DNA of 64,000 bases from an uncultured delta proteobacterium (GTDB lineage Bacteria > Desulfobacterota > Binatia > Binatales > Binataceae), in contig CAVRVY010000001.1 in NCBI GenBank assembly GCA_963724765.1, positions 1-64,000 on the forward strand. The letters are read 5' to 3'. The stretch's first letter is position 1. Each line of letters starts with the position of its first letter. Below are positions 49,598 to 64,000 of the stretch, one piece after another. The position numbers were made by a program, and so were the translations under genes. The notes under the pieces were generated by a model. The model saw only the letters and a program-made list of their open reading frames with translations, had not been told where the DNA came from and made no database searches.

Positions 49598-49926
49598 AGC
49601 GCAGCGAACGCCACCAATGAGAGCGGCGGCGAAGCGGAGATCGCAGGCGGAGTGGAGATGCGGTGTGGGGCCGCGACGCGGAGTTTACGGAGCGCTCGCG
49701 GGGAGGCTCACAGCGGAGACGGCTGCTGTTTCGATTGTGGATGACGTTGTTCAAAAGGAGACAGCGATTTATCGCCACGTACCAAGTTTCGTGGTATCTT
49801 CGCTTAAGCTTGTAGGAGTGGCTTCAGGTTTTCCGAAGCGCCGAGTCAGCGTCTGTGGTCAGCGGAGCGGACTTCGAAAGCGGTTTGCTTTGAGGTTAAT
49901 GTGCTGGATGGGTGGCCGGGCAGGGA

Positions 49927-51858
49927 ATGCAAGACGAGTATCTGATCCATCTGAACTTCTTGCCCGTGAAGGGCGTCCTCCCGATGTGCAGGTTGCATCG
50001 ACGCGGCTATGCCTCTGCACAAGAACAACGTCCGTTCTCCACGGCAAGGTCTTACCGCCTTCCGGTCCGTCCCGGCGACGCCGAAGGGTGGGAGCAATTT
50101 TGGGTCTCGTTGGAGGGCAGAGAAAGCTTCGCTTCCTTCGAGTTCAATCCGTCGTGGAATTTAGGGTTAGTTCGACACGTGCTCTTCGCATCGCTAGTCG
50201 CGTCGGTTGAGCGATCGTTAGAACCAGAACAGTATCGGGTTCCAGAAAACGAGTTTATCCAGGAAGTTTCGTTGATCATGGAGAGGCATCCAGAGGGAAA
50301 TGAACTTCTGGTTATCCAACCGTACTCTCTTCGCGCATCGCGACAGACAGGGTTTCTTGTGGACTTCCACTTCGAGTTGGGCAAGGGGGTAGCGTTCGAC
50401 CGGCGGGTTCAGCAATTGAGTCTGAGCCTGAACAAGAACTTTCGGCGCAACGCAGACCATCACGTCGATCGAAGTGCGAAAATTAGACAGTTTCTCGATC
50501 TGCGTTGGAGTGTGTTCTCAGAGGTAAGACTGCCGGGTTGCTCGAATCCAATCGCAATTGAGAAGGAGTTTGTTGCTCTTCCATCGGAGAGGCTGCGCCC
50601 CAAGGTGTATGTCTTTTCTGGGGGGAGAGAATCAAGAAGCCAATTTGCAGGGCTTCGGGACTTTGGTCCTCTTGAGCCCCTTGGTGGTCCCACGAAGTTA
50701 CTGTTCGCGTTTAGAGAGCGTGACCGGCAGGCTGCCCGGCGGTTGGCTGTGTCACTCAGGGGGCTCCGGCAGCAGGGACATTTCAGTTTTCCTGGATTTA
50801 AGCGGCTGTTCAAAACTGATCTTGAAATCGACGCGCAGCCAATCGTCCTTCCTGACCTTACGGAGCAGACGATGCAAGCCGCACTAGAGCGCGCGATGAC
50901 TGAACGCCAAGAAGGAATGCAAGTGGTTCCGGTGATCGTGCTACCGGAAGGCGAAGATAACGGTTACTACGAGTTGAAGGCGCTCTTTTCACATTCGGGT
51001 GTGCCGACTCAGGTTTGTACACTCAAAATTCTCGAAGACGAAGAGTTGCTCAAGTGGTCGATCGCTAACTTGGCGCTACAGATTTTCTGCAAAGCGGGGG
51101 GTCGGCCGTGGAAGGTTCGCCCGACTCCGGAGAGGTCTTTGATCATAGGAATCAGTCAGTCACACAAGACGAAATTGGTCGATGATCGACGTCGAATTGA
51201 GAAGTACTTTGCGTTCTCGGTGCTGACTGATAGTAGCGGCTTGTTCCAGAAAATTCGCGTGCTAGGCGAAGGTATTGACGATTCGAGTTATATTTCAGAC
51301 CTTCGAGCGAATCTCAAACGTATATTGGAGGAGAGTGCAGACCTGTTCGGGCGGGTGGTAATACACACCTCGTTCAAACTAAAACATTCAGAGATGGACG
51401 CGATTCAACGAACAACTCGGGAGGTAGCAGGTGCGTCTCGAGCGGGATGCAAATTCGCAGTTATCAAAGTAAATCAGAGAAACCGCTTCTTCGGTGTCAA
51501 TCGGTCGGTCAATAGCCTCGTTCCTTTTGAGGGGACAAAGATCAGGTTGGGCCGCAATGAGTATTTGGTTTGGTTTGAAGGCCTTTTGCCTGAGCAGCCG
51601 AGCGTAACGCGAGCATTCCCAGGCCCGACTCATTTGCAGTTCCTGCGGATCAGAGAGGAGGGTACGGGAATCGCCGAAGAGAGAGAACTGCTTCAAGATA
51701 TAGTTAATCTGTCAGGCGCAAACTGGCGAGGTTTCAATGCGAAAAGCGCGCCTGTTTCGGTCTTCTACTGCCATCTCGTTGCGGACTTGGTTCAGGATTT
51801 TCATGACAGAGGGTTACCACTTCCGGCGGTGGAGGATATTCGTCCGTGGTTCCTGTGA
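49927..51858 (+). CDS. Prokaryotic Argonaute, long type with inactive PIWI (long-B-like)
   Basis: L2 GLRDFGP; MID YYELK...PTQV...NLALQIFCKAGGRPW; PIWI IIGISQSH and VVIHTSF lack the catalytic Asp residues; LSGANWRGFN...PV...PWFL end. Confidence 0.9.
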   Translation: MQDEYLIHLNFLPVKGVLPMCRLHRRGYASAQEQRPFSTARSYRLPVRPGDAEGWEQFWVSLEGRESFASFEFNPSWNLGLVRHVLFASLVASVERSLEPEQYRVPENEFIQEVSLIMERHPEGNELLVIQPYSLRASRQTGFLVDFHFELGKGVAFDRRVQQLSLSLNKNFRRNADHHVDRSAKIRQFLDLRWSVFSEVRLPGCSNPIAIEKEFVALPSERLRPKVYVFSGGRESRSQFAGLRDFGPLEPLGGPTKLLFAFRERDRQAARRLAVSLRGLRQQGHFSFPGFKRLFKTDLEIDAQPIVLPDLTEQTMQAALERAMTERQEGMQVVPVIVLPEGEDNGYYELKALFSHSGVPTQVCTLKILEDEELLKWSIANLALQIFCKAGGRPWKVRPTPERSLIIGISQSHKTKLVDDRRRIEKYFAFSVLTDSSGLFQKIRVLGEGIDDSSYISDLRANLKRILEESADLFGRVVIHTSFKLKHSEMDAIQRTTREVAGASRAGCKFAVIKVNQRNRFFGVNRSVNSLVPFEGTKIRLGRNEYLVWFEGLLPEQPSVTRAFPGPTHLQFLRIREEGTGIAEERELLQDIVNLSGANWRGFNAKSAPVSVFYCHLVADLVQDFHDRGLPLPAVEDIRPWFL

Positions 51859-51865
51859 GCGGTGA

Positions 51866-52963
51866 ATGACAAGCAGGTCCAAGGATATCATTATTCTGTT
51901 AGGTGCTGGCGCGAGCGCCGAAGCTGGGATACCTGTCTCGAGTCGAATGATTGGTAGCGTGGAGGAAAACCTTCGGAGTAGAGACGACTGGAGCGAATTT
52001 GGGCAGCTCTATAATCACGTCAAGAGCGCGATACACTTTTCCGCGGGCCTGAAGGGCCGCTTCGGTGATGATGTCCCTTTCAACATCGAAACTCTAGTGA
52101 ATACTCTTTATGAGCTTGAGAGAAACGAGGAACATCCACTCTATCCGTTCATTGCTGCGTGGAATTCTAGGTTTGTAGCGCTTGCCGGGCCGAACTTTGA
52201 GTCAGTGCGCCGGTTTAGGAAGTTGATCCTGGGGGCGCTGAAGAAATGGATGTGCATAGAGAACGCTGCAAAGTCGAATTACTACAAGGGCTTGAGCACG
52301 CTACAGCAGGATTTAAACTACCCTCTTCATGCCTTCTCGTTGAACTATGACCTGTGCGTAGAGCGTTTGAATCAGCCGGCGTTCCGTGTCGAGACGGGGT
52401 TTGCGGACTATGGGCCGGATAACCCTTGGGACTTCGAACGGTTCGAAGATCTCGAGTTGACGAACAATCCGTCCCCGCAGATTCTTCTCTACAAGTTACA
52501 TGGCTCCATAAACTGGAAACGAGACCCCGCAACGAAGAATCTGTTTGCAGTTGATCAAATCGAAAGCGTCGATGAGGAAGAGATGGAGGTCATCTTCGGT
52601 CGCGATTTTAAGCTGGAAGCCGCTGACCCTTATTTGTTCTTCGCTTATGAATTCCGCCGATTTACGCTGTTGACGCGGCTGATCGTTGCGATCGGGTACG
52701 GTTTCGGGGACTTGCATATTAATAAGATGTTGACGCAGAGTCTACGAAGTGACGCCGACCGACGACTTGTAGTCGTTCAGAATTGTAGCCATGAAAGTTT
52801 GGCGGAAAGAGAGATCGAAATAGCGAGGCGTTTGGAGTTGAGCGGCGATCGCAGAGAACAAGTGATAATCGAGAGTGGCTCAGCTAGAGAGTTCTTGGAA
52901 AGTCCAGATTTGGCAAAGAAGTTAATTGGGTTGATCCCAGCGACTAGAGACGCCGGATTTTAA
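51866..52963 (+). CDS. SIR2-like (SIR2_2) NADase effector
   Basis: LLGAGAS, SLNYD, KLHGSINW, IGYGFGDLHIN; 7 bp after the pAgo stop. Confidence 0.9.
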   Translation: MTSRSKDIIILLGAGASAEAGIPVSSRMIGSVEENLRSRDDWSEFGQLYNHVKSAIHFSAGLKGRFGDDVPFNIETLVNTLYELERNEEHPLYPFIAAWNSRFVALAGPNFESVRRFRKLILGALKKWMCIENAAKSNYYKGLSTLQQDLNYPLHAFSLNYDLCVERLNQPAFRVETGFADYGPDNPWDFERFEDLELTNNPSPQILLYKLHGSINWKRDPATKNLFAVDQIESVDEEEMEVIFGRDFKLEAADPYLFFAYEFRRFTLLTRLIVAIGYGFGDLHINKMLTQSLRSDADRRLVVVQNCSHESLAEREIEIARRLELSGDRREQVIIESGSAREFLESPDLAKKLIGLIPATRDAGF

Positions 52964-52999: not shown

Positions 53000-53490
53000 T
53001 TATCGTAGAACACAGGTGGATAGAGCGTGCGTCGTAACAAGACCGGCGAAATAGTCTGCCAGTTGAGCAACTAGGGGATGAGACTTAACGAGTACGCCGA
53101 TTTCGATGTTTCTGAGCCAGGCCGCCTGAGTAAAATTCGCAGAAGTGATCATCGCTTTCGTGCGGTCGGCGACAACGCACTTTGCATGCAGGCTTGAACG
53201 TTTCAGCGGATCGTTTGATAGCGAGCGCGGGTCATAGTAAACGTCCGGAAGATTCGCAAACGGCCAGTGTGTTTCTCGAAACTCTTGAGCGAAGCGGCGC
53301 ACGATTTCAGAATCGAGCGAAGTATCGCCTAGCTTCCTACCTATCTCGATGCAAAATTCGACGTGTAGGTTGTCATTCGCCATTCTCGAAGCAAGGAGCT
53401 CGAATATCGGTTTGGCGTTATGGACCGCGTAGCCGATCATTAGCACCTCTCGTCTAGCTTCTGAGATCAAGGTTCGAAGCGTAGTGAGTG
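53000..53490 (-). pseudogene. drmC: DISARM DrmC-like PLD nuclease, 5'-truncated by IS3
   Basis: IGYAVH...WP...VYYDPRSL...LHAKCVVAD...SANFT...RNIEIGV. Confidence 0.8.
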
Positions 53491-53511
53491 TGGTCTGCCC
53501 CCCAATGCCCG

Positions 53512-54381
53512 TCAGATCATAGGTAGAGTCTTTGGTTGTTTTTCCCCCTCCTGGGGCGGAATCAGTTTCTCCGTTTTTAGCTGTGCGAACTCGACTGGCG
53601 TCAGAGCGCCAAGGCTCGAATGCGGCCGACGATGGTTGTAATCGTCGCGCCACGCTTCGATGGTTGTGCGCGCCTCGGCCAGACTCAGGAATACATGCTC
53701 GTTGAGACATTCGTCGCGCAAGCGGCTATTGAACGATTCCACGAAGGCGTTCTGCACCGGCTTACCGGGCGCGATGTAGTGCCAGTCCAGCCGCCCGATC
53801 GACCAGCGTAGTACCGCCGTACTGGTCAGCTCGCAGCCGTTATCGCTGACGATTACTGCGGGAAGCCCACGCTCCAACACTAAGCGCTCCAGTTCGCGCA
53901 CGACGCGCACGCCGCCGATCGAAGTATCGACCACCGTGGCCAGGCATTCGCGACTGAAGTCGTCCACTACGCAGAAGATGCGGAAGCGGCGGCCATCGCT
54001 GAACGCATCTGACACGAAGTCGAGTGACCAACGCCGATTGATCGCATCGGGCAATCCCAGCGGTGCGCGGGTGCCGAGGGCGCGTTTGCGCCGACCGCGC
54101 CGGCGCACCATCAGCTTTTCCTCGCGGTAGATCCGGTAGAGCTTCTTGCGATTCATCACATGGCCTTCCCTGGCCAGTAGCCAACCCAAGCGGCGATAGC
54201 CAAACCGTCGCCGCTCCGCGGCCAGCTCACGCAGTCGCCGGCGCACCGTCGAATCGTCCGGCCGCCTCGACTGATAGTTAGGCTCGAACGGTTGAGCCCC
54301 ACCAGCCTGCATGCGCGCCCTGGCTCATGCGGTACTGCTCGATGAGTCGGGTGACGGCTCGCGTCGCGCCGCAGGCTCTAA
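53512..54381 (-). CDS. IS3 transposase OrfB (DDE), with extra indels near its 5' end
   Basis: [24 protein letters not shown]. Confidence 0.88.
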
Positions 54382-54644
54382 CCGTTTTTTCCGAGCAGAT
54401 CCTTGAGCGCCGCGTTGTCCAGCATCGCCTCGGCCAACAGCTTCTTCAGTCGCCGATTCTCATCCTCCAGCGACTTCAGCCGGCGCGCCTCGGAGACCTC
54501 GAGCCCGCCGTACTTTGCTTTCCATTTGTAGAAGGTCGCGTCCGAGATCCCGTGCCGGCGACATACCTCCGGCGTCTTTGCCCCCGCCTCCGCCTCCCGC
54601 AAGATCCCGATTATCTGTTCCTCGCTGAACCGGCTGCCCTTCAT
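54378..54644 (-). CDS. IS3 transposase OrfA
   Basis: RFSEEQIIGIL...HGISDATFYKWK...LEDENRRLKKL; ends at an AAAAAAC slippery site. Confidence 0.92.
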   Translation of the reverse strand: MKGSRFSEEQIIGILREAEAGAKTPEVCRRHGISDATFYKWKAKYGGLEVSEARRLKSLEDENRRLKKLLAEAMLDNAALKDLLGKNG

Positions 54645-55462: not shown

Positions 55463-56859
55463 TTAATATTTCGTGCGCACATACACGCCGACACGCCCAG
55501 GGCATGGATAGCCCCGAGGGTTCTTGTGAGGGTTCAGTGAACCGTCCATCGTTCGTCTGTTAAATGTCTTCCGACAGACAGTGCATCGGTAGACGTAGGT
55601 TGGCCCCTGCTGCCTTGCGCGCGGCGCGCGGCGCGTGCTCGCAATGCGAGGCATCGCCGTGGATGGCGCGACGGTCAATGGTCCGGTCGAAGTCAATTCG
55701 ACAGCGTAACGCGGCGTGAAGACTTGCGAAGTGACGGTCGCACTCTGCATCCGATCCACGCGATAAGAACGGTGTTCGCCTGAATCGCTGCGGATGGCGT
55801 GCAGCACGAAATAGCCTTCGCTGTCTGGCGCAGCGAATAGGGCTCGATGCGGCGCACGCCGCCGTCATAGGTCAGATCGACGCACAGATGGTTCGCCGCG
55901 GCGAAGCGGACGATTTCCAGCGTCGAGCGGGAGCGGATGGGGACACCCATCGGAAGCACGCGGGTCCGGACAGCAATTTCGCCGGCACCGTGCTGGATAA
56001 ACGCGCGTTGCGGGATTTCCGCGCCACCGGTGATCCAGGTGAAGATTTCAGGGAGAGCGTCCCAGAAGTCGTTAAGCGGAGGAAGGACAGGGAGCTGGTG
56101 CGCCAGCATGTCCGACCACATCGCCTCAAGGGATTGGCGATGAGGCACCAGGGTATCGAAAGTTGGAACCGGGATTGCCTTGTATTCGCACTTCTGCCGG
56201 AGCACATCGCTAAGTACGGCGGCTGTTGGACGGCTGTCCGTGTGCCGGTACAGGTTCACCACGTCGTAAAGGTCACGGGGCCGCGTGCGTTCTCCGAGCG
56301 CACGGAGCTTTTCCCCGAAGGCTTCCTCGTACGCGTAACAATTGGCCCAAATACCTCCTTCGGGGCGGTCGGTGTAAGGATGAAATACCTCGCGGCGGAC
56401 GGAAGGAAGTACCAGCCTCTCATCTGCTGTCAGGTCAAGCTTGATCTTCGGCCAACCGCCTGATGTCGGTGAGACCGGGCCGCGATAGGCGATCTTGCCC
56501 TGGCAGTTCATGCGGCCGCGCGGGTTTTCGTAAATGTCGAATTCGAGTTGATCGACGGCGATGTTCAAGCCGGATTGTTCCGTGATCCAGCCGATGACTT
56601 CTTCGAAAACGGGCTGCAGGAAGTCCTCATCAAGATGGCTCTCATCGCGCAGCGTGAAGTCCAGGTCCTCCGAAAACCGATAGGTCTCGAAGTAGCACTT
56701 CTTGAGACACGTGCCGCCCTTGAAGACCCAGCTTTCCGCGATCTCCTCATGCGCGTTGATGCCGGCGAGCATCCAGCCGAGGACATAGTCCTTCTCAACA
56801 ACGCTCGGCAAGAGCGAAAACGACGATGCGGCTTCGAGCAATTCGCGGCGGTCTATCAT
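55463..56859 (-). CDS. AbiEii/AbiGii nucleotidyltransferase toxin fused to a WYL domain and Cys/His tail (one apparent frameshift near 55820)
   Basis: VEKDY, FKGGT, RFSEDLDF, EKLRAL, RPRDLYD; then YDGGVRRIEPYSL / GYFVLHA...RSYRVDRM; tail CTVC...HKNPRGYPCPG. Confidence 0.85.
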
Positions 56860-57662
56860 GCTGCAGTGTCTTTCCAACGCTCTGGCACCCACAGCCGCCA
56901 GGCAGTGACAAGTTTCCGGGAAGAGAGCGCTGGATCGAGCCGGGCATAACCGCTAGTTAGCCGGGAGCGGCACTCGTCCGCGAGAGCTTTGTCGCGCAGG
57001 CGGGTATCAGCTAGAAATCCAAGGCGTTTGAAGATGACGCCATTGTTGAATTGCTCCGCGTAGCGGATTAACAGGTCCCGGTCAGCGGACTTGCCATGAA
57101 GATATGCAGACAAGCAGTCGGCCACGTGATCGATGCCGCCGCCGACCTCTGGCATGGCGATCATGTCGACAAGCGTGCGCGCCGGGTCCGATATTGAGAC
57201 CTTCGTAGATCCGCGCCACAGGGTTTTCAGTCCGAAGAGACGTTTGGCTTTTATGCTGCGAAGCCGAAAAGCCGCGCCCTGCGCGGTTACGCGCTTCTCA
57301 ATGACACGGCGGGTAGTAAAGACCAGCGTTTCGTTGAAGAGCTGCTCGGTGAGTTCCCAATGGTGCGCGGCTGTCCAGCCGCCGATGTAGCTTTCGCCGA
57401 AGAGTGTCGGGACGAGCACCCAGGGATCTGCGATAACCTGTTCGCTGCCGGCCAGATCCAATGGCACGGGAACATAGAGACCGTGCCCTATCCTTCGCAG
57501 CCATCCCTGCTCTCTCCAGCGGGAGAGAAGCTTGGCGGCGGCGCGCCGGTCAATGCCAAGAGTTTGCGCCGCAATGTCAACCGATACCACCTCCTTGGTG
57601 GCACGGAGAACGGCGGCAAGCCGCGCTCGGGAGGCGGGCAATGGGTCGGTTTCGCTCCTCAT
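56856..57662 (-). CDS. AbiEi-type (type IV TA) antitoxin / transcriptional regulator
   Basis: wHTH GWLRRIGHGLY, YIGGWTAAHHWELTEQ, SDPARTLVD, KRLGFL; 4-bp overlap with the toxin. Confidence 0.9.
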   Translation of the reverse strand: MRSETDPLPASRARLAAVLRATKEVVSVDIAAQTLGIDRRAAAKLLSRWREQGWLRRIGHGLYVPVPLDLAGSEQVIADPWVLVPTLFGESYIGGWTAAHHWELTEQLFNETLVFTTRRVIEKRVTAQGAAFRLRSIKAKRLFGLKTLWRGSTKVSISDPARTLVDMIAMPEVGGGIDHVADCLSAYLHGKSADRDLLIRYAEQFNNGVIFKRLGFLADTRLRDKALADECRSRLTSGYARLDPALSSRKLVTAWRLWVPERWKDTAA

Positions 57663-57723
57663 GGACTATATGATATAACACTAAATTCGCATTATCAAGG
57701 AACTTAACGCTCAACAATATAGT
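57663..57723 (-). promoter_or_regulatory. AbiE promoter (probably leaderless) inside an imperfect 24-bp inverted repeat
   Basis: TTGATA-17-TATCAT, 7 nt before the ATG. IR arms 57665-57688 and 57700-57723 match at 16 of 24 positions. Confidence 0.65.
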
Positions 57724-57886: not shown

Positions 57887-60800
57887 TCATTCTCGATGCG
57901 GCAAATACATGCGTCCTCTTACTCGACGTCGTGGCACGTCAAGCGTGAACTCATAGTGCAGCACAGAGCGGAGTTCTTCAAAAGCAACACTATTCGCAAC
58001 GGCGTAGCCGGCTTTGTCGACCCAGGTCCAGCCGCCGCGCAACTCCACCGGCGTTACATAGAGTTCTCCCGACAGATAGTCGTTTCTGTTCCGGGTCAAC
58101 GTTACACGCCAGTCAAAATGCGGTTGAGGCGGCTGTTCAGGGTCTCGCGACCCAGTCTGCTGTGCCCAATCGCGTATAGCTCGTGGATCAAGTAAGTCAT
58201 TCGCAGCGATTCCTGTTGTCCGCGAACTATAATACGATTGCGACATAACCTCGGCATCGGTTCTTGTTTTTGCATAGCCACGAGCAAGGAGAAATGCGGC
58301 AACAGGCTCCAAGGTTCCCCAGGTCAGCAGCTCCTTAAGCCAGAATGCGATCCACGGCAAGTCGGCGAGCGGCCAATCGCCGATCTCGAGTGGTCGGATC
58401 GGAGCGTGTTCGTTGTCGCTGAAGGCGACGGAAATTAGTCCACCAAGACCCCAAGTGCTGAGGTAGCAGAAATTCTTAGACACATAATCGAACCACACGG
58501 TGATTTGCTTTGGCGTGGGTTGTTCGTCGAGCGTCTCTTTGCACATCCACCATCTAAGCAACCTTTGCCAGTCCCTAAAGTTTCGTCTGCCTCCGAGCTT
58601 TGTGCTCAAGCGGAACGCTGGCACTTCATTTAAGCTGCCGATGACCCGAGCGACAAAGCCAAAACGTTGCTCAGTCGTCCATCGAGCATACTCAAGTCCT
58701 TCCCTAAGCTGGTCTACAATCGATGGAGCTTGCTCTAGCAGTATTATCGCCGAACGCGGCGTCAGACTCGTCCTATAAATGCGGGCGCGTTCTTGTGAGT
58801 CCGGATAGCGCCTTGGGAGCGCACGTCCGCGGCTAAACCAGATCCTACTTAACCGCGCTTCAGCTGACCCGGATGCATGCGCGTAGGTCGCTTGCCAAAT
58901 GCGACGAAGTTCTGCCTCGAGTTCAGCCCCATCGAGCGGCGAGTTCGTCAGCTCCTCAACTTCCCTAAGAGCGCATAGCAGAAAATAGTCGAGAGCATCC
59001 AAGTTACGAACCGCGGGAGTCTCGGGCGCTGTCGTAACGGCGGTCGCCTCCAACCAGCGCGTAAATGCCGAATCCGAGGTTTGCCCGCTCAGGGTCCGCC
59101 AGGTCGACTCAATGGCGCTGAGCAAAGCAAGCAGCGCGCTATCCGCAGTATCCGTGCCTTGCTCGGCTCTACCTGTTGATTGTTCCAGCTCGTCGCGGAG
59201 TTCCTCGTAGCCTCTTCTCTGCCGGTAGCTCCCCTGGTCTGCAGAAAGAACTACAAACGCATGCCCTTCGGTAGCTACACCGGGACGGCCCGCGCGACCT
59301 ATCAAATTTGAAAACTCCTGCAGATCGAACCGGACCTGCCCTCGATAGACACTTGGTATCAGGATATAATTCACCGGAATATTCACGCCTTCCGATAAGG
59401 TCGAGGTTGCGATGATCACCCGCACTGTCCCTCGATCAATCAAGCGCTTCAACCGCCGGCCCACGGGTGGTGGAAGCTTTCCGTGATGGACTGCTATGCC
59501 CCACGACAACAACCTGTATTCGTAAGAGTCTACGGAAAAATAGTCTTCCATTGATGCCAAACATTCCGTGAGCAACGTGTCATCTGTCCTTCTCTCGAAA
59601 TAGGAAGGCAATTGATCCGATCCCCAGTGATCGAGGATCTCCAGACAGGCACCCGTAAAATCGTCAATTCTCTGAGCCATAGAAACCAGAACGGTTGGCT
59701 TCGTTCCTTCGCTTCGTTCAGCAGCGAGATTCAGGGCGGCCCAGAGGGTGGGCGCTCGCATTCTCACTTCCGGCTGATTTCGTGGTCCTAACCGCTGGGG
59801 CATCTTGGCAAAAGGCTCGCCTACGTATGGAGAGGACGTTGTTCTGCCCTCACGAAACTTAAGCGATTGGCCGTTCATCAGGTCATACTGAATGGTGAAC
59901 GACCCTTGAGGACTGACCTCCAACCGCCCAAGCATCTGACGTGTACTGCGGTGGCGCGACTCTATTGGAGTTGCGCCTTCATCGCCAGAAATCCACCGCG
60001 CCAACGATGGCGCCGAACCGGCGGCTACGGCGGAGAGAGCTATTGTGCGGAAGGCATAGCGTTCACGAGCGAGGTTGAGACGAGTTCCTAGCAGTTCCAG
60101 GCGATACGCCCTGCTAGTAGCTTCCTGAAGGCTGAGCAGGTCTGGCCGTCCATAGTTCACTGTGTGGGCTTCGTCAATAATCACCAGCCTCACGCGGTCT
60201 AAAAACAACACACCAAGAAACCGCAGCAACGCGTCCGCCTTTTCGTATGTACAGATGAGTATCGTTGGCTGATCTTGGGATATCCAAGCGTCTGTGAGGT
60301 CCCCAATCCGTGCCCCCGTACAGACCCGTCACAACAATCCTTTGTGCCGAGATACCTCGTAAGTCTTCCGCAAGACGTTCCTCAACCTCTGCGGCCAGTG
60401 CGCGAGATGGAACCAAATACAATACGAGATTGCCGGTTCGTTGACCGTCTAGCCCTTCGGCAGCATTTGGATTGTTCTCGAACAGGGCAGGAATTATTCC
60501 AAGGGTCGCTACTGTCGTTTTGCCTGACCCCGTCGGCGTACATAGCGCAAAGGACCCTCCCCCGCGCAATCGCGAGATTCCAGCGGCTTGAGCTGGCCAA
60601 ACCAGCGCTCTTTTATTCGCGAACTGTGCTCTTGCAAATTGCGTCAGAGCTTCGATGGTGTCCGGAGATGCAGCAACTTGCATTTCAGCAACGGGACCCC
60701 AAAGCGAGGTTTCTACGTAGCGACGTGAAACAGCTCCCACCAATTTCGCTAAAACTGACGAGTAAGAATCTCTGCTATGAAGAAATCCCTCAGCGAGTCT

Positions 60801-61429
60801 ATCCAGCTTTGTGATTGCCCGCTGGACCATGTCATCGCGGCCGTAGCGTAGGTACTCGCAAACTGTTCCTATACATCGGATCACATGTTGAACCGCCAAA
60901 GCTGAAAAGGCAGCTCCGTCGAGACATACCTTGGAATCGTGCTTGCCAGCCCTCCTCGCCAATATTCGACCGTAGCTCGGAGCACAGCGGAAAGTCTGCC
61001 CGCAAAAACCCCGCAAGAATCTCTGATGCCACGCCTGCATCAGGCATTTCCTTGAGCTCGCCCAGAGCCATCGCCGGATAGCCTGCCACTTGGTAAGCTG
61101 CTGCAGAGAGGAGATGTAGAGGGGCTCCTTGAGGGCGCAAATCTGCTCAAGACAGCCACTCCAGTATTTCAGCACCGCGTTTGACGCTTTCTTGCCAACT
61201 GAAACCATCTTCAGGCTGACTGCGTAGAAGAAAAGGCGTATTGAATTAAGGAGGAACGCTTCTTCTTGAGCTCGCCCGATGTCTGATGGCCCGAAGCTCG
61301 CCAGGCCCCGGTCCCATCTGCCTCCGCATGCTCTGACTGTACAGCTTTGCCTGCGACTCGGCTCAGCGCAGTCGCGACGGATGAGCTGATATTCTTTCGC
61401 AAGATACGCGCCGATTCCGCTGTAGGCAT
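57887..61429 (-). pseudogene. Large Ski2-like DEAH-box helicase (HamB-like), several frameshifts in the 5' third
   Basis: PTGSGKT, VPSRALAAEV, IIDEAH, LSAV, AVHHG, TSTLSEGVN, GRAGR. N-terminus MPTAES at 61429 is broken across frames. Confidence 0.85.
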
Positions 61430-62318
61430 CCGGCTACCCTCTTATAGACCGAGTCCACTAGCGTATCCAAATCATCGACATGATATTCGAGTCCAAATAA
61501 CGCCCGATGCGCAGTGTAAGCAGAGTTCGGTGCGCTCGCAGACATCCAGCTTCGCCTGCCAGGTGCTCGCGGTGCTTCGCCACAAACATACACCACCGCG
61601 TCGTATCGCGTCACACCTTGACCGGCTGAAGCTCGATATTTGATTAATGCTTCTTGCCACGCTTCTGCTTCAGGCGTGTCGTAGCAGTTTAGCAGCTCAA
61701 CCAGTTCCCGAACGCTATCCGGAACCGATGATGCGCTGCTGAGTTTTCCGTGGGCCGCGCTCAGTTTGACCGATTGATGACCGGACAAACACTTGGCTTC
61801 GAGCGTCAAGACGTGCGTGATCGAGTCGGCATCATTCTTCACGAAGGCAATCGCATCATCCCCGGTGCGTCCAGGCCGGCGGGCAGCCGGCGCGTCGGGA
61901 TCGTACGCTTGGCCCGCCCTGAGCTGTTGGTTGATGCGCTCAAGATGTTGAAACTCGACGTCATGAAATCTGAAGAGAAGAGCAGGAACCTGCCAGTCAT
62001 TTCGATTGTGTATATCCCAGTGCTCAACAGCTAGAGCCGCAAACGTCTCCCCGAGGTATCCCTTCAACGTGTTTCGGTGCAATAAACCCGGGTAATTCGC
62101 AGCAGGGTCTAGTACTGGATCGTTGAATGGTGACAGAGCATCTTCAAATCCACTACGCAAGCGTAGGCGGGCATCTTCCAAAGCTTCTTGGAAATACGCC
62201 ACAAGTTCCGCTAGTACATCGCACCGCCTTGCAAGTTCTTCATGCCAAAGGCAGCAGGTGGTAGGAACCATTCCCCTGTGGGCCGCGGCTGCTCGACGAG
62301 CCACCTTTGCAAGGTCAC
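61363..62318 (-). CDS. PD-(D/E)xK nuclease-like protein (HamA-like); termini uncertain
   Basis: KGYLGE...GRTGDDAIAF...LEAK; directly upstream of the helicase. Confidence 0.7.
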
Positions 62319-62704: not shown

Positions 62705-64000
62705 TCAAAGCCATGCCGCGCGGGACAAGCCTGACCAAACGGCGGACCTTGACTTTCTGCTTGCTTCTGCGTCGGCGACTATTTCTCGTATAAACGGCTC
62801 GGGAGCGTTCGCGAAGCGAGCGATCAGGTCGTCGTAGACTGCGCGCTCTTCTTCGCTCCGGCCGAGCTCTCCCAGGGTGATGCTCGTGTTGAATAGCGCC
62901 TTGGCCACCTGCTCGCGCAGAGCCGGCTCCGTTGCGCTGCCAAAGCGCACGATTACATCGTCGTAGAGGGCGATTCCCTGTTGGGTCCGGCCGAGCTGCC
63001 CCAAAGTGACCCCCTTGTCGACCAGCGCGTTGGCCACCGCTCCGCGCAGCGCTGGCTCCGCTGCGTTGCCGAAGCGCGCGATTACGTGGTCGTAGACGGC
63101 AATCGCCTCCTCGTCGTGGCCAAGCAAAGCGAGGGCCGCCCCTTTATCGATGAGTGCAGCGGCGACAAATTCGAGCAGCGGCAGTTCGGCAGAGGAGCCG
63201 AACCGGGCAACGAGGTCATCGTACACCGCGAGCGCATCACCTCTGCGATCGAGTGCATCGAGCGCGCCTCCCTTGCTAATGAGAGCAGCTGCAAGTTGCA
63301 CGCGCAGCGGCGTCTCAGGAGCCGTTCCAAAGTGAGCCAGAACCGCGTCGAAGAGCGGTATCGCGTCTTCGCTCTGATGGAGATCGTTGAGCGCGCTCCC
63401 CTTACCGACAAGGGTTCCGGCAACCTCTTCACGCATCCAGAGCTCAGTCGCCGAGCCGAAGCGAGAAAGCATGTCTCCGTAGACTGAGACCCCCTCCTCA
63501 ACCCGGTCGAGCGCAACGAGCAGCCCCCCCTTCCTGAGAAGCGCCACCATGATCGGCTTGCGCAGATGCGTTTCTGCAGACGAGCCGAATCGGGCCAGGA
63601 AATCATTAAAGGTCGCGAGAGCCTCCGTATAACGGCCGAGCGCAACGAGCACGTTGCCTTTGTTGATTAGCGCCTTGGCGATCTGCTCGCGCAGCGGCAG
63701 CTCGTCAGAGGAGCCGAACCTCGCCAGCACGTCGTCATAGACCTCAATTGCACTTTCACTAAAGCCGAGTCCGAGACCCTTGTTTACGAGCGCCCGGGCA
63801 ACCCGTTCGCGCAGCGAGAGCTCGGTCGCAGAGCCGAACCTAGTAACGACATCGTCATACGCCAGGCGCCCCTCATCAGGACGACCGAGCGCGCATAGGT
63901 TGTGTCCCTTGTTATCAAGGGCCATCGCGACCAATTCGCGAAGCGGCAGTTCGGTAGAGGAGCCGAACCTCGCCAGCACGTCGTCGTAGGCGGCGATTGC
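62705..64000 (-). CDS. Tetratricopeptide-like repeat protein (about 45-aa units), 5'-partial
   Basis: Repeats of A.AL.NKG..L..LGR.EEA.AVYD...ARFG.A.E..LRE. Confidence 0.88.
   Translation of the reverse strand, partial: AIAAYDDVLARFGSSTELPLRELVAMALDNKGHNLCALGRPDEGRLAYDDVVTRFGSATELSLRERVARALVNKGLGLGFSESAIEVYDDVLARFGSSDELPLREQIAKALINKGNVLVALGRYTEALATFNDFLARFGSSAETHLRKPIMVALLRKGGLLVALDRVEEGVSVYGDMLSRFGSATELWMREEVAGTLVGKGSALNDLHQSEDAIPLFDAVLAHFGTAPETPLRVQLAAALISKGGALDALDRRGDALAVYDDLVARFGSSAELPLLEFVAAALIDKGAALALLGHDEEAIAVYDHVIARFGNAAEPALRGAVANALVDKGVTLGQLGRTQQGIALYDDVIVRFGSATEPALREQVAKALFNTSITLGELGRSEEERAVYDDLIARFANAPEPFIREIVADAEASRKSRSAVWSGLSRAAWL

Follow-up and report, generated by a model that had tools for sequence, protein, structure and literature searches.

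An AbiE toxin-antitoxin operon in a Binataceae genome and its toxin subfamily with a WYL domain and a zinc-finger-like tail

The locus considered here lies in a stretch of 64,000 nucleotides from an uncultured delta proteobacterium of the family Binataceae (GenBank assembly GCA_963724765.1, contig CAVRVY010000001.1, positions 1 to 64,000 of the forward strand), which is referred to below as the window. The window contains an AbiE-type toxin gene that continues beyond its nucleotidyltransferase (NTase) domain into a C-terminal arm with a WYL domain, and the reading frame is lost inside this arm. The questions raised by the locus are what such a toxin does with the arm and whether the break in the frame belongs to the organism or to the assembly. 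The locus is an abiEi-abiEii (AbiE) toxin-antitoxin (TA) and abortive-infection operon, and its toxin is a member of a large and, by its distribution, horizontally spread subfamily in which a DUF1814 nucleotidyltransferase is followed by a WYL domain, a basic linker and a C2HC zinc finger. The best overall explanation, to which we assign a probability of roughly 0.45, is an AbiE operon whose toxin arm would serve as a substrate tether and whose missing base would be a real mutation.

The toxin core was assigned by sequence and by structure. The 399-aa open reading frame (ORF) of the window matches PF08843 over residues 42–280 with 118.1 bits against a Pfam cut-off of 22.5 bits; a search of the whole genome (5.4 Mb in four contigs) gave 119.5 bits, and this was the single PF08843 locus found there. 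The NTase motifs FKGGT, RFSEDLDF, KLDLT and EKLRALGERTRPRDLYDV are all present. The domain and structure work was done on P0001, an intact natural relative, instead of on the joined pieces of the window, and Pfam places the AbiEii domain of P0001 at residues 30–268. The AlphaFold2 model of P0001, calculated from a 56-row alignment, has a mean predicted local distance difference test score (pLDDT) of 90.7 and a predicted template-modeling score (pTM) of 0.84. Foldseek matched this model with 6y56 at E 4e-8, and the structure comparison of residues 1–281 gave Z scores of 20.6 with MenT4 (6y56) and 20.5 with MenT3/TglT (6j7r). Over the MenT3/TglT and MenT4 entries 6y5u, 6j7s and 6y56, the shared core fold extends over 255–259 residues (Z 20.2–20.6) with a root-mean-square deviation (rmsd) of 3.3–3.5 Å; however, the identity is 12–18%, the antitoxins are of other kinds, and these toxins have no C-terminal nucleic-acid-binding arm.

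The single-protein sequence search of the PDB reached 6y56 alone, at E 0.019, and a profile search was therefore needed to reach 9hlo_B ('Abortive infection protein AbiGII', 287 aa), which the family profile matched at E 1.7e-9. In the profile alignment, T65 of 9hlo_B corresponds to S63 and D192 corresponds to D199; S63 and D199 occur without exception in 20 of 20 relatives and also in the window. The preprint on the Streptococcus agalactiae system (bioRxiv 10.64898/2026.01.19.700257, Arrowsmith et al. 2026) describes AbiEi as binding the toxin and inducing its auto-phosphorylation at T65, which the authors take as grounds for classing AbiE as type VII. The same text gives D192 as the essential catalytic residue, the D192A variant being non-toxic, and reports that free AbiEii transfers UTP or CTP to tRNAs and blocks protein synthesis. 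We infer that the core mechanism is probably the same in the present family. Like its characterized relatives, AbiEii of S. agalactiae and the MenT toxins, the intact protein would add pyrimidine nucleotides to tRNA 3' ends and block translation; on binding of AbiEi, the toxin would phosphorylate its own Ser63, the counterpart of AbiEii Thr65, and be switched off. The AbiE systems of S. agalactiae and Lactococcus lactis (9hlo_B; AbiEi 6y8q) share with the locus the bicistronic operon with the antitoxin first, the NTase family, the AbiEi-type antitoxin, and the positions of the phospho-acceptor and the catalytic Asp. They differ in that the canonical toxin has 287 aa and lacks the WYL domain, the linker and the zinc finger.

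The arm of the window copy is divided between two frames. The NTase frame reads ...LTYDGGVRRIEPYSLRQTA and then loses register, with the in-frame stretch extending to ...YDGGVRRIEPYSLRQTA; the adjacent frame resumes with (E)GYFVLHAIRSDSGEHRSYRVDRMQ..., which is followed by the linker PRIASTRRAPRARQQG and then by YVYRCTVCRKTF...HKNPRGYPCPG...TKY*. In the intact homologues of 465 aa, RQTAEGNFVLHAI runs uninterrupted across the site. In the whole-genome search, residues 1–348 of P0001 match positions 55816–56859 at 96% identity, and residues 346–465 match positions 55466–55825 at 94% identity. In the DNA alignment, the window has only one gap, of one base; it falls on the third position of the Ala347 codon, which is filled in six of six homologous loci, and the frame is continuous through the site in 118 of the 120 homologues listed, which have 446–482 aa. 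The start of the toxin was placed at ATG 56859 and not at GTG 56892 of the ORF list because the homologues begin with MIDRRE. From this start, the product as sequenced has 388 aa, 347 native ones followed by 41 out of frame; it retains the complete NTase core and half of the WYL barrel, and the zinc finger is absent. The window copy is cut inside the WYL domain, and therefore the full protein is not encodable as sequenced.

The WYL domain is matched by PF13280 at residues 313–376 of P0001, with 25.3 bits against a cut-off of 21.8 bits. Six intact homologues were scanned, three of which lie above the cut-off (25.3, 25.2 and 22.0 bits) and three below it (21.5, 19.9 and 18.9 bits), and the match is precomputed for 55 of the 120 homologues listed. 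The sequence call depends on the intact relatives because the split pieces of the window alone reach only 13.3 bits. In the P0001 model, a helix at residues 308–322 is followed by five strands at residues 325–380, as in the Sm/SH3-like barrels of solved WYL domains, and the structure comparison of residues 293–388 gave Z scores of 11.5 for PafBC, 10.4 for CapW bound to single-stranded DNA (ssDNA), 10.2 for ssDNA-bound DriD and 10.1 for BrxR; for the ssDNA-bound CapW and DriD, the rmsd is 2.3–2.4 Å and the identity to the WYL region is 18 and 24%, respectively. The arm was also folded alone, from a 42-row alignment headed by L014, with a pTM of 0.49. When this model was compared with 48,161 representative chains in an unbiased search without the Foldseek prefilter, the top nine matches were all WYL proteins (Z 9.7–12.0), and the next reached at most 8.0. 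The look-alikes of residues 300–465 in the ESM Atlas are WYL clusters with scores of 0.94, 0.92 and 0.90, and R336, R344, R364 and Y366 are conserved. By predicted fold, and by sequence in the intact relatives that lie above the cut-off, the barrel is a WYL domain.

The WYL region of the toxin shares with CapW, BrxR, DriD and PafBC the fold, over 80–87 residues at an rmsd of 2.2–2.8 Å, and motifs of the R-x-I-E-P-Y and R-S-Y-R-V-D-R type. These proteins differ in that they carry winged helix-turn-helix (wHTH) and WCX domains, which the toxin lacks, and in that the WYL domain of the toxin is fused to an enzyme and not to a transcription factor. The Pfam scans detected no helix-turn-helix families in the toxin, and the matches to regulators are confined to residues 293–392 of the model. 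By analogy with these proteins, the WYL arm may bind single-stranded nucleic acid.

The remainder of the arm consists of a basic linker and a 45-residue beta tail. In the AlphaFold2 model, the pLDDT is below 50 at residues 395–398 and 400–417, and the disordered stretch of residues 395–417 is followed by a confident beta tail at residues 421–464 with a pLDDT of about 90. The tail has the motif Y-x-C-x2-C-x-K-x-F-x-R...L-x2-H-K...C-x-G. Its residues Y422, C426, C429, H445 and C453 are the same in all 20 full-length relatives aligned, the most distant of which has 34% identity, and all 42 tails aligned keep the matching Cys/His columns; P0185, a representative outside both of these sets, has Ser at the position of the second Cys. 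None of the curated zinc families in Pfam was matched above its threshold: Zn_ribbon_8 scored 13.2–19 against 34.4 bits and zf-C2H2_6 scored 14.7 against 25 bits, and the sub-threshold zinc-ribbon and C2H2 matches on P0001 fall at residues 420–436. The profile search of the PDB aligned C2H2 fingers with the tail at E values of 0.12–10 only. By its sequence, the tail is similar to a classical C2H2 finger that has exchanged its last His for a Cys further on; in the model, it is built from strands and not from a finger helix. The matches from the structure searches with the full-length protein and with the arm cover the other domains. The tail is like a C2HC zinc finger or ribbon and is predicted to bind metal.

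These results bear on an earlier note on the window, made by a model from the letters alone, which had read a WYL-like segment behind the AbiEii domain, followed by a basic linker and a CxxC...H...C tail. The hidden Markov model and structure searches with P0001 confirmed the AbiEii and WYL domains, the tail remaining below threshold in Pfam; the linker and the tail are both read in the sequence, with the putative metal ligands invariant as given above. The one-base correction that the note had placed near 55820 proved to be exact, the gap lying between 55819 and 55820, and so did its estimate of roughly 465 aa for the joined protein.

The distribution of the architecture was determined at three levels. 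When 1.84 billion representative proteins were searched exhaustively and without a profile, 4515 of them matched at E ≤1e-3 and 542 at E ≤1e-30. Those of the best 150 that look complete form three length classes: 450–479 aa, consisting of the NTase, the WYL domain and the finger; 382–435 aa, consisting of the NTase and the WYL domain and mostly ending at or just past the F-x-P-R-Y-x-V-E motif of the latter; and 275–296 aa, consisting of the NTase only, at 39–54% identity. A quick maximum-likelihood tree of the NTase domain (IQ-TREE, SH-aLRT support) was calculated for 62 complete-looking proteins, of which 58 were picked by hand from the 150 representatives and four were further homologues, fragments being left out. 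The three length classes are interleaved on this tree, and the well-supported branches imply no fewer than 5 to 8 changes for each class. Some of the short forms may be cut-off gene calls like the window copy. The arm is not needed for the activity of the core, as judged from the relatives without the WYL domain or the finger that interleave with the full forms.

In the GTDB set with one genome per species, at least 594 stretches encode a relative; the best 80 of them were inspected locus by locus, with a query alignment of 20 full-length rows. A single open frame spans the whole three-part protein with its Cys/His motif in 64 of these 80 loci. A frameshift or a stop divides seven loci (L024, L032, L037, L048, L060, L072 and L090), five belong to the class of about 400 aa, two lack the tail motif, one is cut by a contig end, and one lacks the 5' part and abiEi. 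An even set of 400 genomes was sampled from the phylum of the window itself. An AbiEii match at E ≤1e-10 was found in 39 of them, about a dozen of which are WYL-bearing, at only 46–53% identity; in the window's own family, none of the four genomes in this sample has an AbiEii match. Two of the 11 loci taken from the phylum sample (L012 and L013) are also disrupted. The recurrent disruption may mean that a toxic gene tends to decay, or that a repetitive linker is difficult to sequence. The hosts include Acidobacteriota (81–86% identity to P0001), Beta-, Gamma-, Alpha- and Deltaproteobacteria, Gemmatimonadales, Obscuribacterales, Dadabacteria, Latescibacterota, Thermodesulfobacteriota, Pirellulaceae (Planctomycetes), Rhodothermaceae, Binatia and two cultured Bradyrhizobium strains. 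The sparse and distant matches in the phylum of the window, together with this wide taxonomic spread, point to horizontal transfer of the subfamily. In 79 of the 80 loci, the toxin gene directly follows a cognate, COG5340-type abiEi gene of the same orientation, and in the phylum sample abiEi is directly upstream in 11 of the 11 loci; the retention of this partner speaks against the proposal of the earlier note that the protein is not a simple TA toxin.

The architecture is real, widespread and catalogued since 2014, and it is not new. Makarova, Anantharaman, Grishin, Koonin and Aravind (Makarova et al. 2014, PMC4012209) name the 'AbiGII-like nucleotidyltransferase (DUF1814)' as one of the partners with which WYL domains are combined, and supplementary file 6 lists a five-member cluster 'AbiGII-like-nucleotidyltransferase+WYL+C2H2', an example of which is a 486-aa DUF1814+WYL+zf-C2H2 protein of Afipia sp. 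1NLS2. The cluster has the same three domains in the same order and at a similar length (476–486 aa against 465 aa); it differs in being a listing of five proteins, likened here by description, and in that the window copy is frameshifted. The PADLOC AbiEii model PDLC02317 (396 positions) covers residues 1–397 of P0001, that is, the NTase and WYL domains, at E 6e-195, and an ESM Atlas cluster of 191 members is automatically named AbiEii/WYL. These entries show that the architecture, of which the earlier note knew no characterization, is on record; the statement of the note that canonical AbiEii and MenT toxins lack a WYL domain agrees with the characterized toxins, which have no such modules. 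The observation of the note is confirmed, and its interpretation as a whole is partly supported. The literature searches, which did not reach subscription-only journals, found no experimental study of an AbiEii-WYL fusion. NCBIfam assigns no family to the toxin or the antitoxin. The window copy is one more, damaged, member of a family listed in 2014 and covered by the PADLOC AbiEii models.

The role of the arm can be considered from the side of the substrate. At their 3' ends, the presumed tRNA substrates of the toxin are single-stranded, and WYL domains bind a few unpaired bases; for these reasons, we lean slightly toward a reading in which the WYL-linker-zinc-finger arm is an accessory module that would bind single-stranded nucleic acid and keep the enzyme tethered to its RNA substrate, so that affinity or the choice of target depends on it, and would not be an infection sensor. 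We hold this tether reading tentatively, at somewhat less than even odds. The Arg-rich linker and the zinc finger together look like an affinity device. The WYL domain of CapW binds short single strands, with three ordered bases seen (PMC11662680), that of a PIF1 helicase has been called 'an accessory single-stranded DNA binding module' (10.1101/163188), and WYL1 reportedly boosts Cas13d on target RNAs (PMC6547453). The WYL domains of the Thermotoga elfii PIF1 helicase and of type VI-D CRISPR likewise appear to serve a nucleic-acid enzyme, although these enzymes differ from the AbiEii NTase. Several points weigh against a tether. The role of the arm in the whole subfamily is argued from analogy; the relatives without the WYL domain (275–296 aa) or the finger (382–435 aa) interleave with the full forms; and the ssDNA-contact arginines that flank the WYL motif of CapW (RWHVR) are N and H here, as judged by eye, so that the ligand may differ. 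Moreover, the characterized WYL proteins of defense (CapW, BrxR) and of the DNA-damage response (PafBC, DriD) are all ssDNA sensors, which favors a sensor as the rival. A complex prediction of AbiEi with the arm (residues 296–465, both given as alignments) scored 0.00 in two runs and is evidence neither way.

As a sensor-effector, the toxin would bind ssDNA or RNA from phage replication or DNA damage through its WYL domain, which would free the NTase from AbiEi or prevent the auto-phosphorylation of Ser63. This is possible, and we rate it behind the tether. It is consistent with the closeness of the fold to ssDNA-bound CapW and DriD; ssDNA sensing by CapW de-represses its defense operon (PMC11662680), PafBC and DriD also sense ssDNA, and a ligand-sensing role for WYL was already proposed by Makarova et al. 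2014 (PMC4012209). In the S. agalactiae preprint, E. coli carrying the AbiE system was not protected against any of 32 coliphages (10.64898/2026.01.19.700257, section 12). The relatives without the arm suit a regulatory add-on that is dispensable for the core, and the pTM of the full-length protein compared with that of the arm alone suggests that the arm may pack against the core. On the other hand, the known WYL sensors signal through dimeric wHTH and WCX domains that are absent from the toxin and have neither a zinc finger nor a basic linker. In its fuller form, in which the WYL domain, the linker and the C2HC finger together would bind infection or damage nucleic acid and lift the AbiEi-induced auto-phosphorylation, so that an AbiE toxin carries its own trigger sensor, the proposal is less likely than not; if true, an AbiE system would for the first time have a known molecular trigger, and a WYL domain would for the first time be seen to gate an enzyme directly and not a transcription factor. 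It is improbable that the arm acts on DNA or on the antitoxin, either by helping AbiEi to repress the promoter or by offering AbiEi an extra docking surface. C2H2-like fingers and basic linkers often bind double-stranded DNA, and AbiEi carries a winged-helix domain; against this, the search of the region upstream of abiEi found no repeated operator-like sequence, only two 9-nt palindromes, and the family literature consulted gives no hint of the toxin as a co-repressor. Under the tether reading as under its rivals, a toxin joined to a domain that reads single strands is a convenient handle on the signal that switches AbiE on.

The gap itself was compared with contigs of relatives, 88–99% alike, from four soil-metagenome runs (Logan), and with these only, because no public run contained the complete 2.2-kb stretch (best word share 0.53). 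After 55819, the contigs from three of the four runs carry an additional base; that of the fourth run stops at the site, and a loose end begins with the same base as the insert of the other runs. Over the 2200 bases compared, the gap is the only indel listed. It probably is a real inactivating mutation in a decaying defense island and not an assembly error. The site lies outside any homopolymer, neighboring genes are damaged, and broken copies of the same toxin recur in other genomes; in the same assembly, rpoB, rpoC and two genes for Pol III alpha are unbroken over 1418, 1423, 1172 and 1314 codons, about 5,300 codons together. A consensus or assembly error, with an intact 465-aa gene in the organism, is the less probable alternative, to which we nevertheless give appreciable weight. 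From a genome in four contigs, one may guess at a long-read assembly with residual indels, and a helicase gene at a distance of 4.5 kb has another single-base indel peculiar to the window, at a site where P0271, which is 97–98% identical, reads through. Apart from the gap, the toxin gene keeps every motif at 94–96% identity to an intact relative, and the antitoxin gene is intact. Some of these facts count against a real mutation: both lesions are single-base indels specific to the window when set against relatives 96–98% identical, no further decay is seen in the antitoxin gene or in the NTase motifs, and a locally poor consensus would likewise give a second single-base indel nearby. However, the helicase site, like the gap site, is not homopolymeric. 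Programmed −1 ribosomal frameshifting was considered as a further way of joining the frames, since a slip at ...ACA GCG|AAG... would yield exactly RQTAEG as in the homologues. It was rejected as vanishingly improbable: the site has no slippery heptamer, none of the relatives examined shares the gap, and the base is present in their DNA at the loci and in the runs described above.

The features of the operon and of its surroundings are collected in Table 1. The TGA stop of abiEi overlaps the ATG of the toxin as ATGA. The span of 55463–57723 that the earlier note had given to the toxin does contain it; the span also takes in abiEi and the region upstream. The promoter-like sequence 5' of abiEi occurs no more often than expected by chance in shuffles.

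Table 1. Features of the AbiE operon and of the neighboring part of the window
Feature	Position	Strand	Evidence or remark
Piwi-domain prokaryotic Argonaute (648 aa), then SIR2_2-domain protein (365 aa)	49912–52963	+	
DrmC-like PLD nuclease gene	53000–54644	−	PADLOC DrmC, E 4.8e-49
IS3-family element	orfB 53512–54312, orfA 54378–54644		
abiEii-WYL-C2HC toxin gene, 1397 nt (1398 nt in intact relatives)	55463–56859	−	one-base deletion interrupts frame
C2HC zinc-finger/ribbon-like tail, residues 420–465	55466–55603	−	conserved Cys/His motif
WYL region end and Arg-rich linker, residues 377–419, predicted disordered	55604–55732	−	low pLDDT
Shifted-frame stop codon	55693–55695	−	computed from coordinates
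WYL domain coding region, residues 313–376 of the intact protein, split by the frameshift	55733–55923	−	PF13280 on P0001
Missing-base site, third position of Ala347 codon	55819–55820	.	DNA alignment and relatives' contigs
DUF1814/AbiEii nucleotidyltransferase core	56053–56769	−	PF08843, E 4.9e-34
abiEi antitoxin gene, 268 aa, intact	56856–57662	−	Pfam AbiEi_4 37.7 bits, AbiEi_1 27.1 bits; PADLOC AbiEi PDLC02271, E 5e-117
Promoter-like TTGATA-17-TATCAT directly upstream of abiEi, weak lead	57670–57698	−	2 sites against 1.1 expected in shuffles
HamB-like (Hachiman-type) DEAD/DEAH helicase, broken, at least two frames	57887–61208	−	
313-aa ORF upstream of helicase	61363–62304	−	no Pfam or PADLOC match
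TPR-repeat protein with weak BTAD-like stretch, island edge	62705–63979	−	

As shown in Table 1, the AbiE operon sits in a defense island with several lesions. The homologues of the helicase are intact at about 1180–1195 aa. In the window, its DEAD N-terminal part (ORF 60174–61208) and the rest (ORF 57887–60229) are in different frames; P0271 is continuous through ...GTDWGPTDAWI..., and the window has one additional base after the Pro codon near 60294. Upstream of about residue 165 of P0272, the N-terminal part is likewise out of register, and a second lesion may be present. The 313-aa ORF could be a partner gene of the helicase or a part of its broken 5' region. On the other side of the operon, the DrmC-like gene lacks about the first 90 positions of the profile, its 5' end overlaps the IS3-family element, and it appears to have been cut short by the insertion. 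The Argonaute and SIR2 genes beyond it, which follow each other immediately, appear to be an intact pAgo-SIR2 defense pair.

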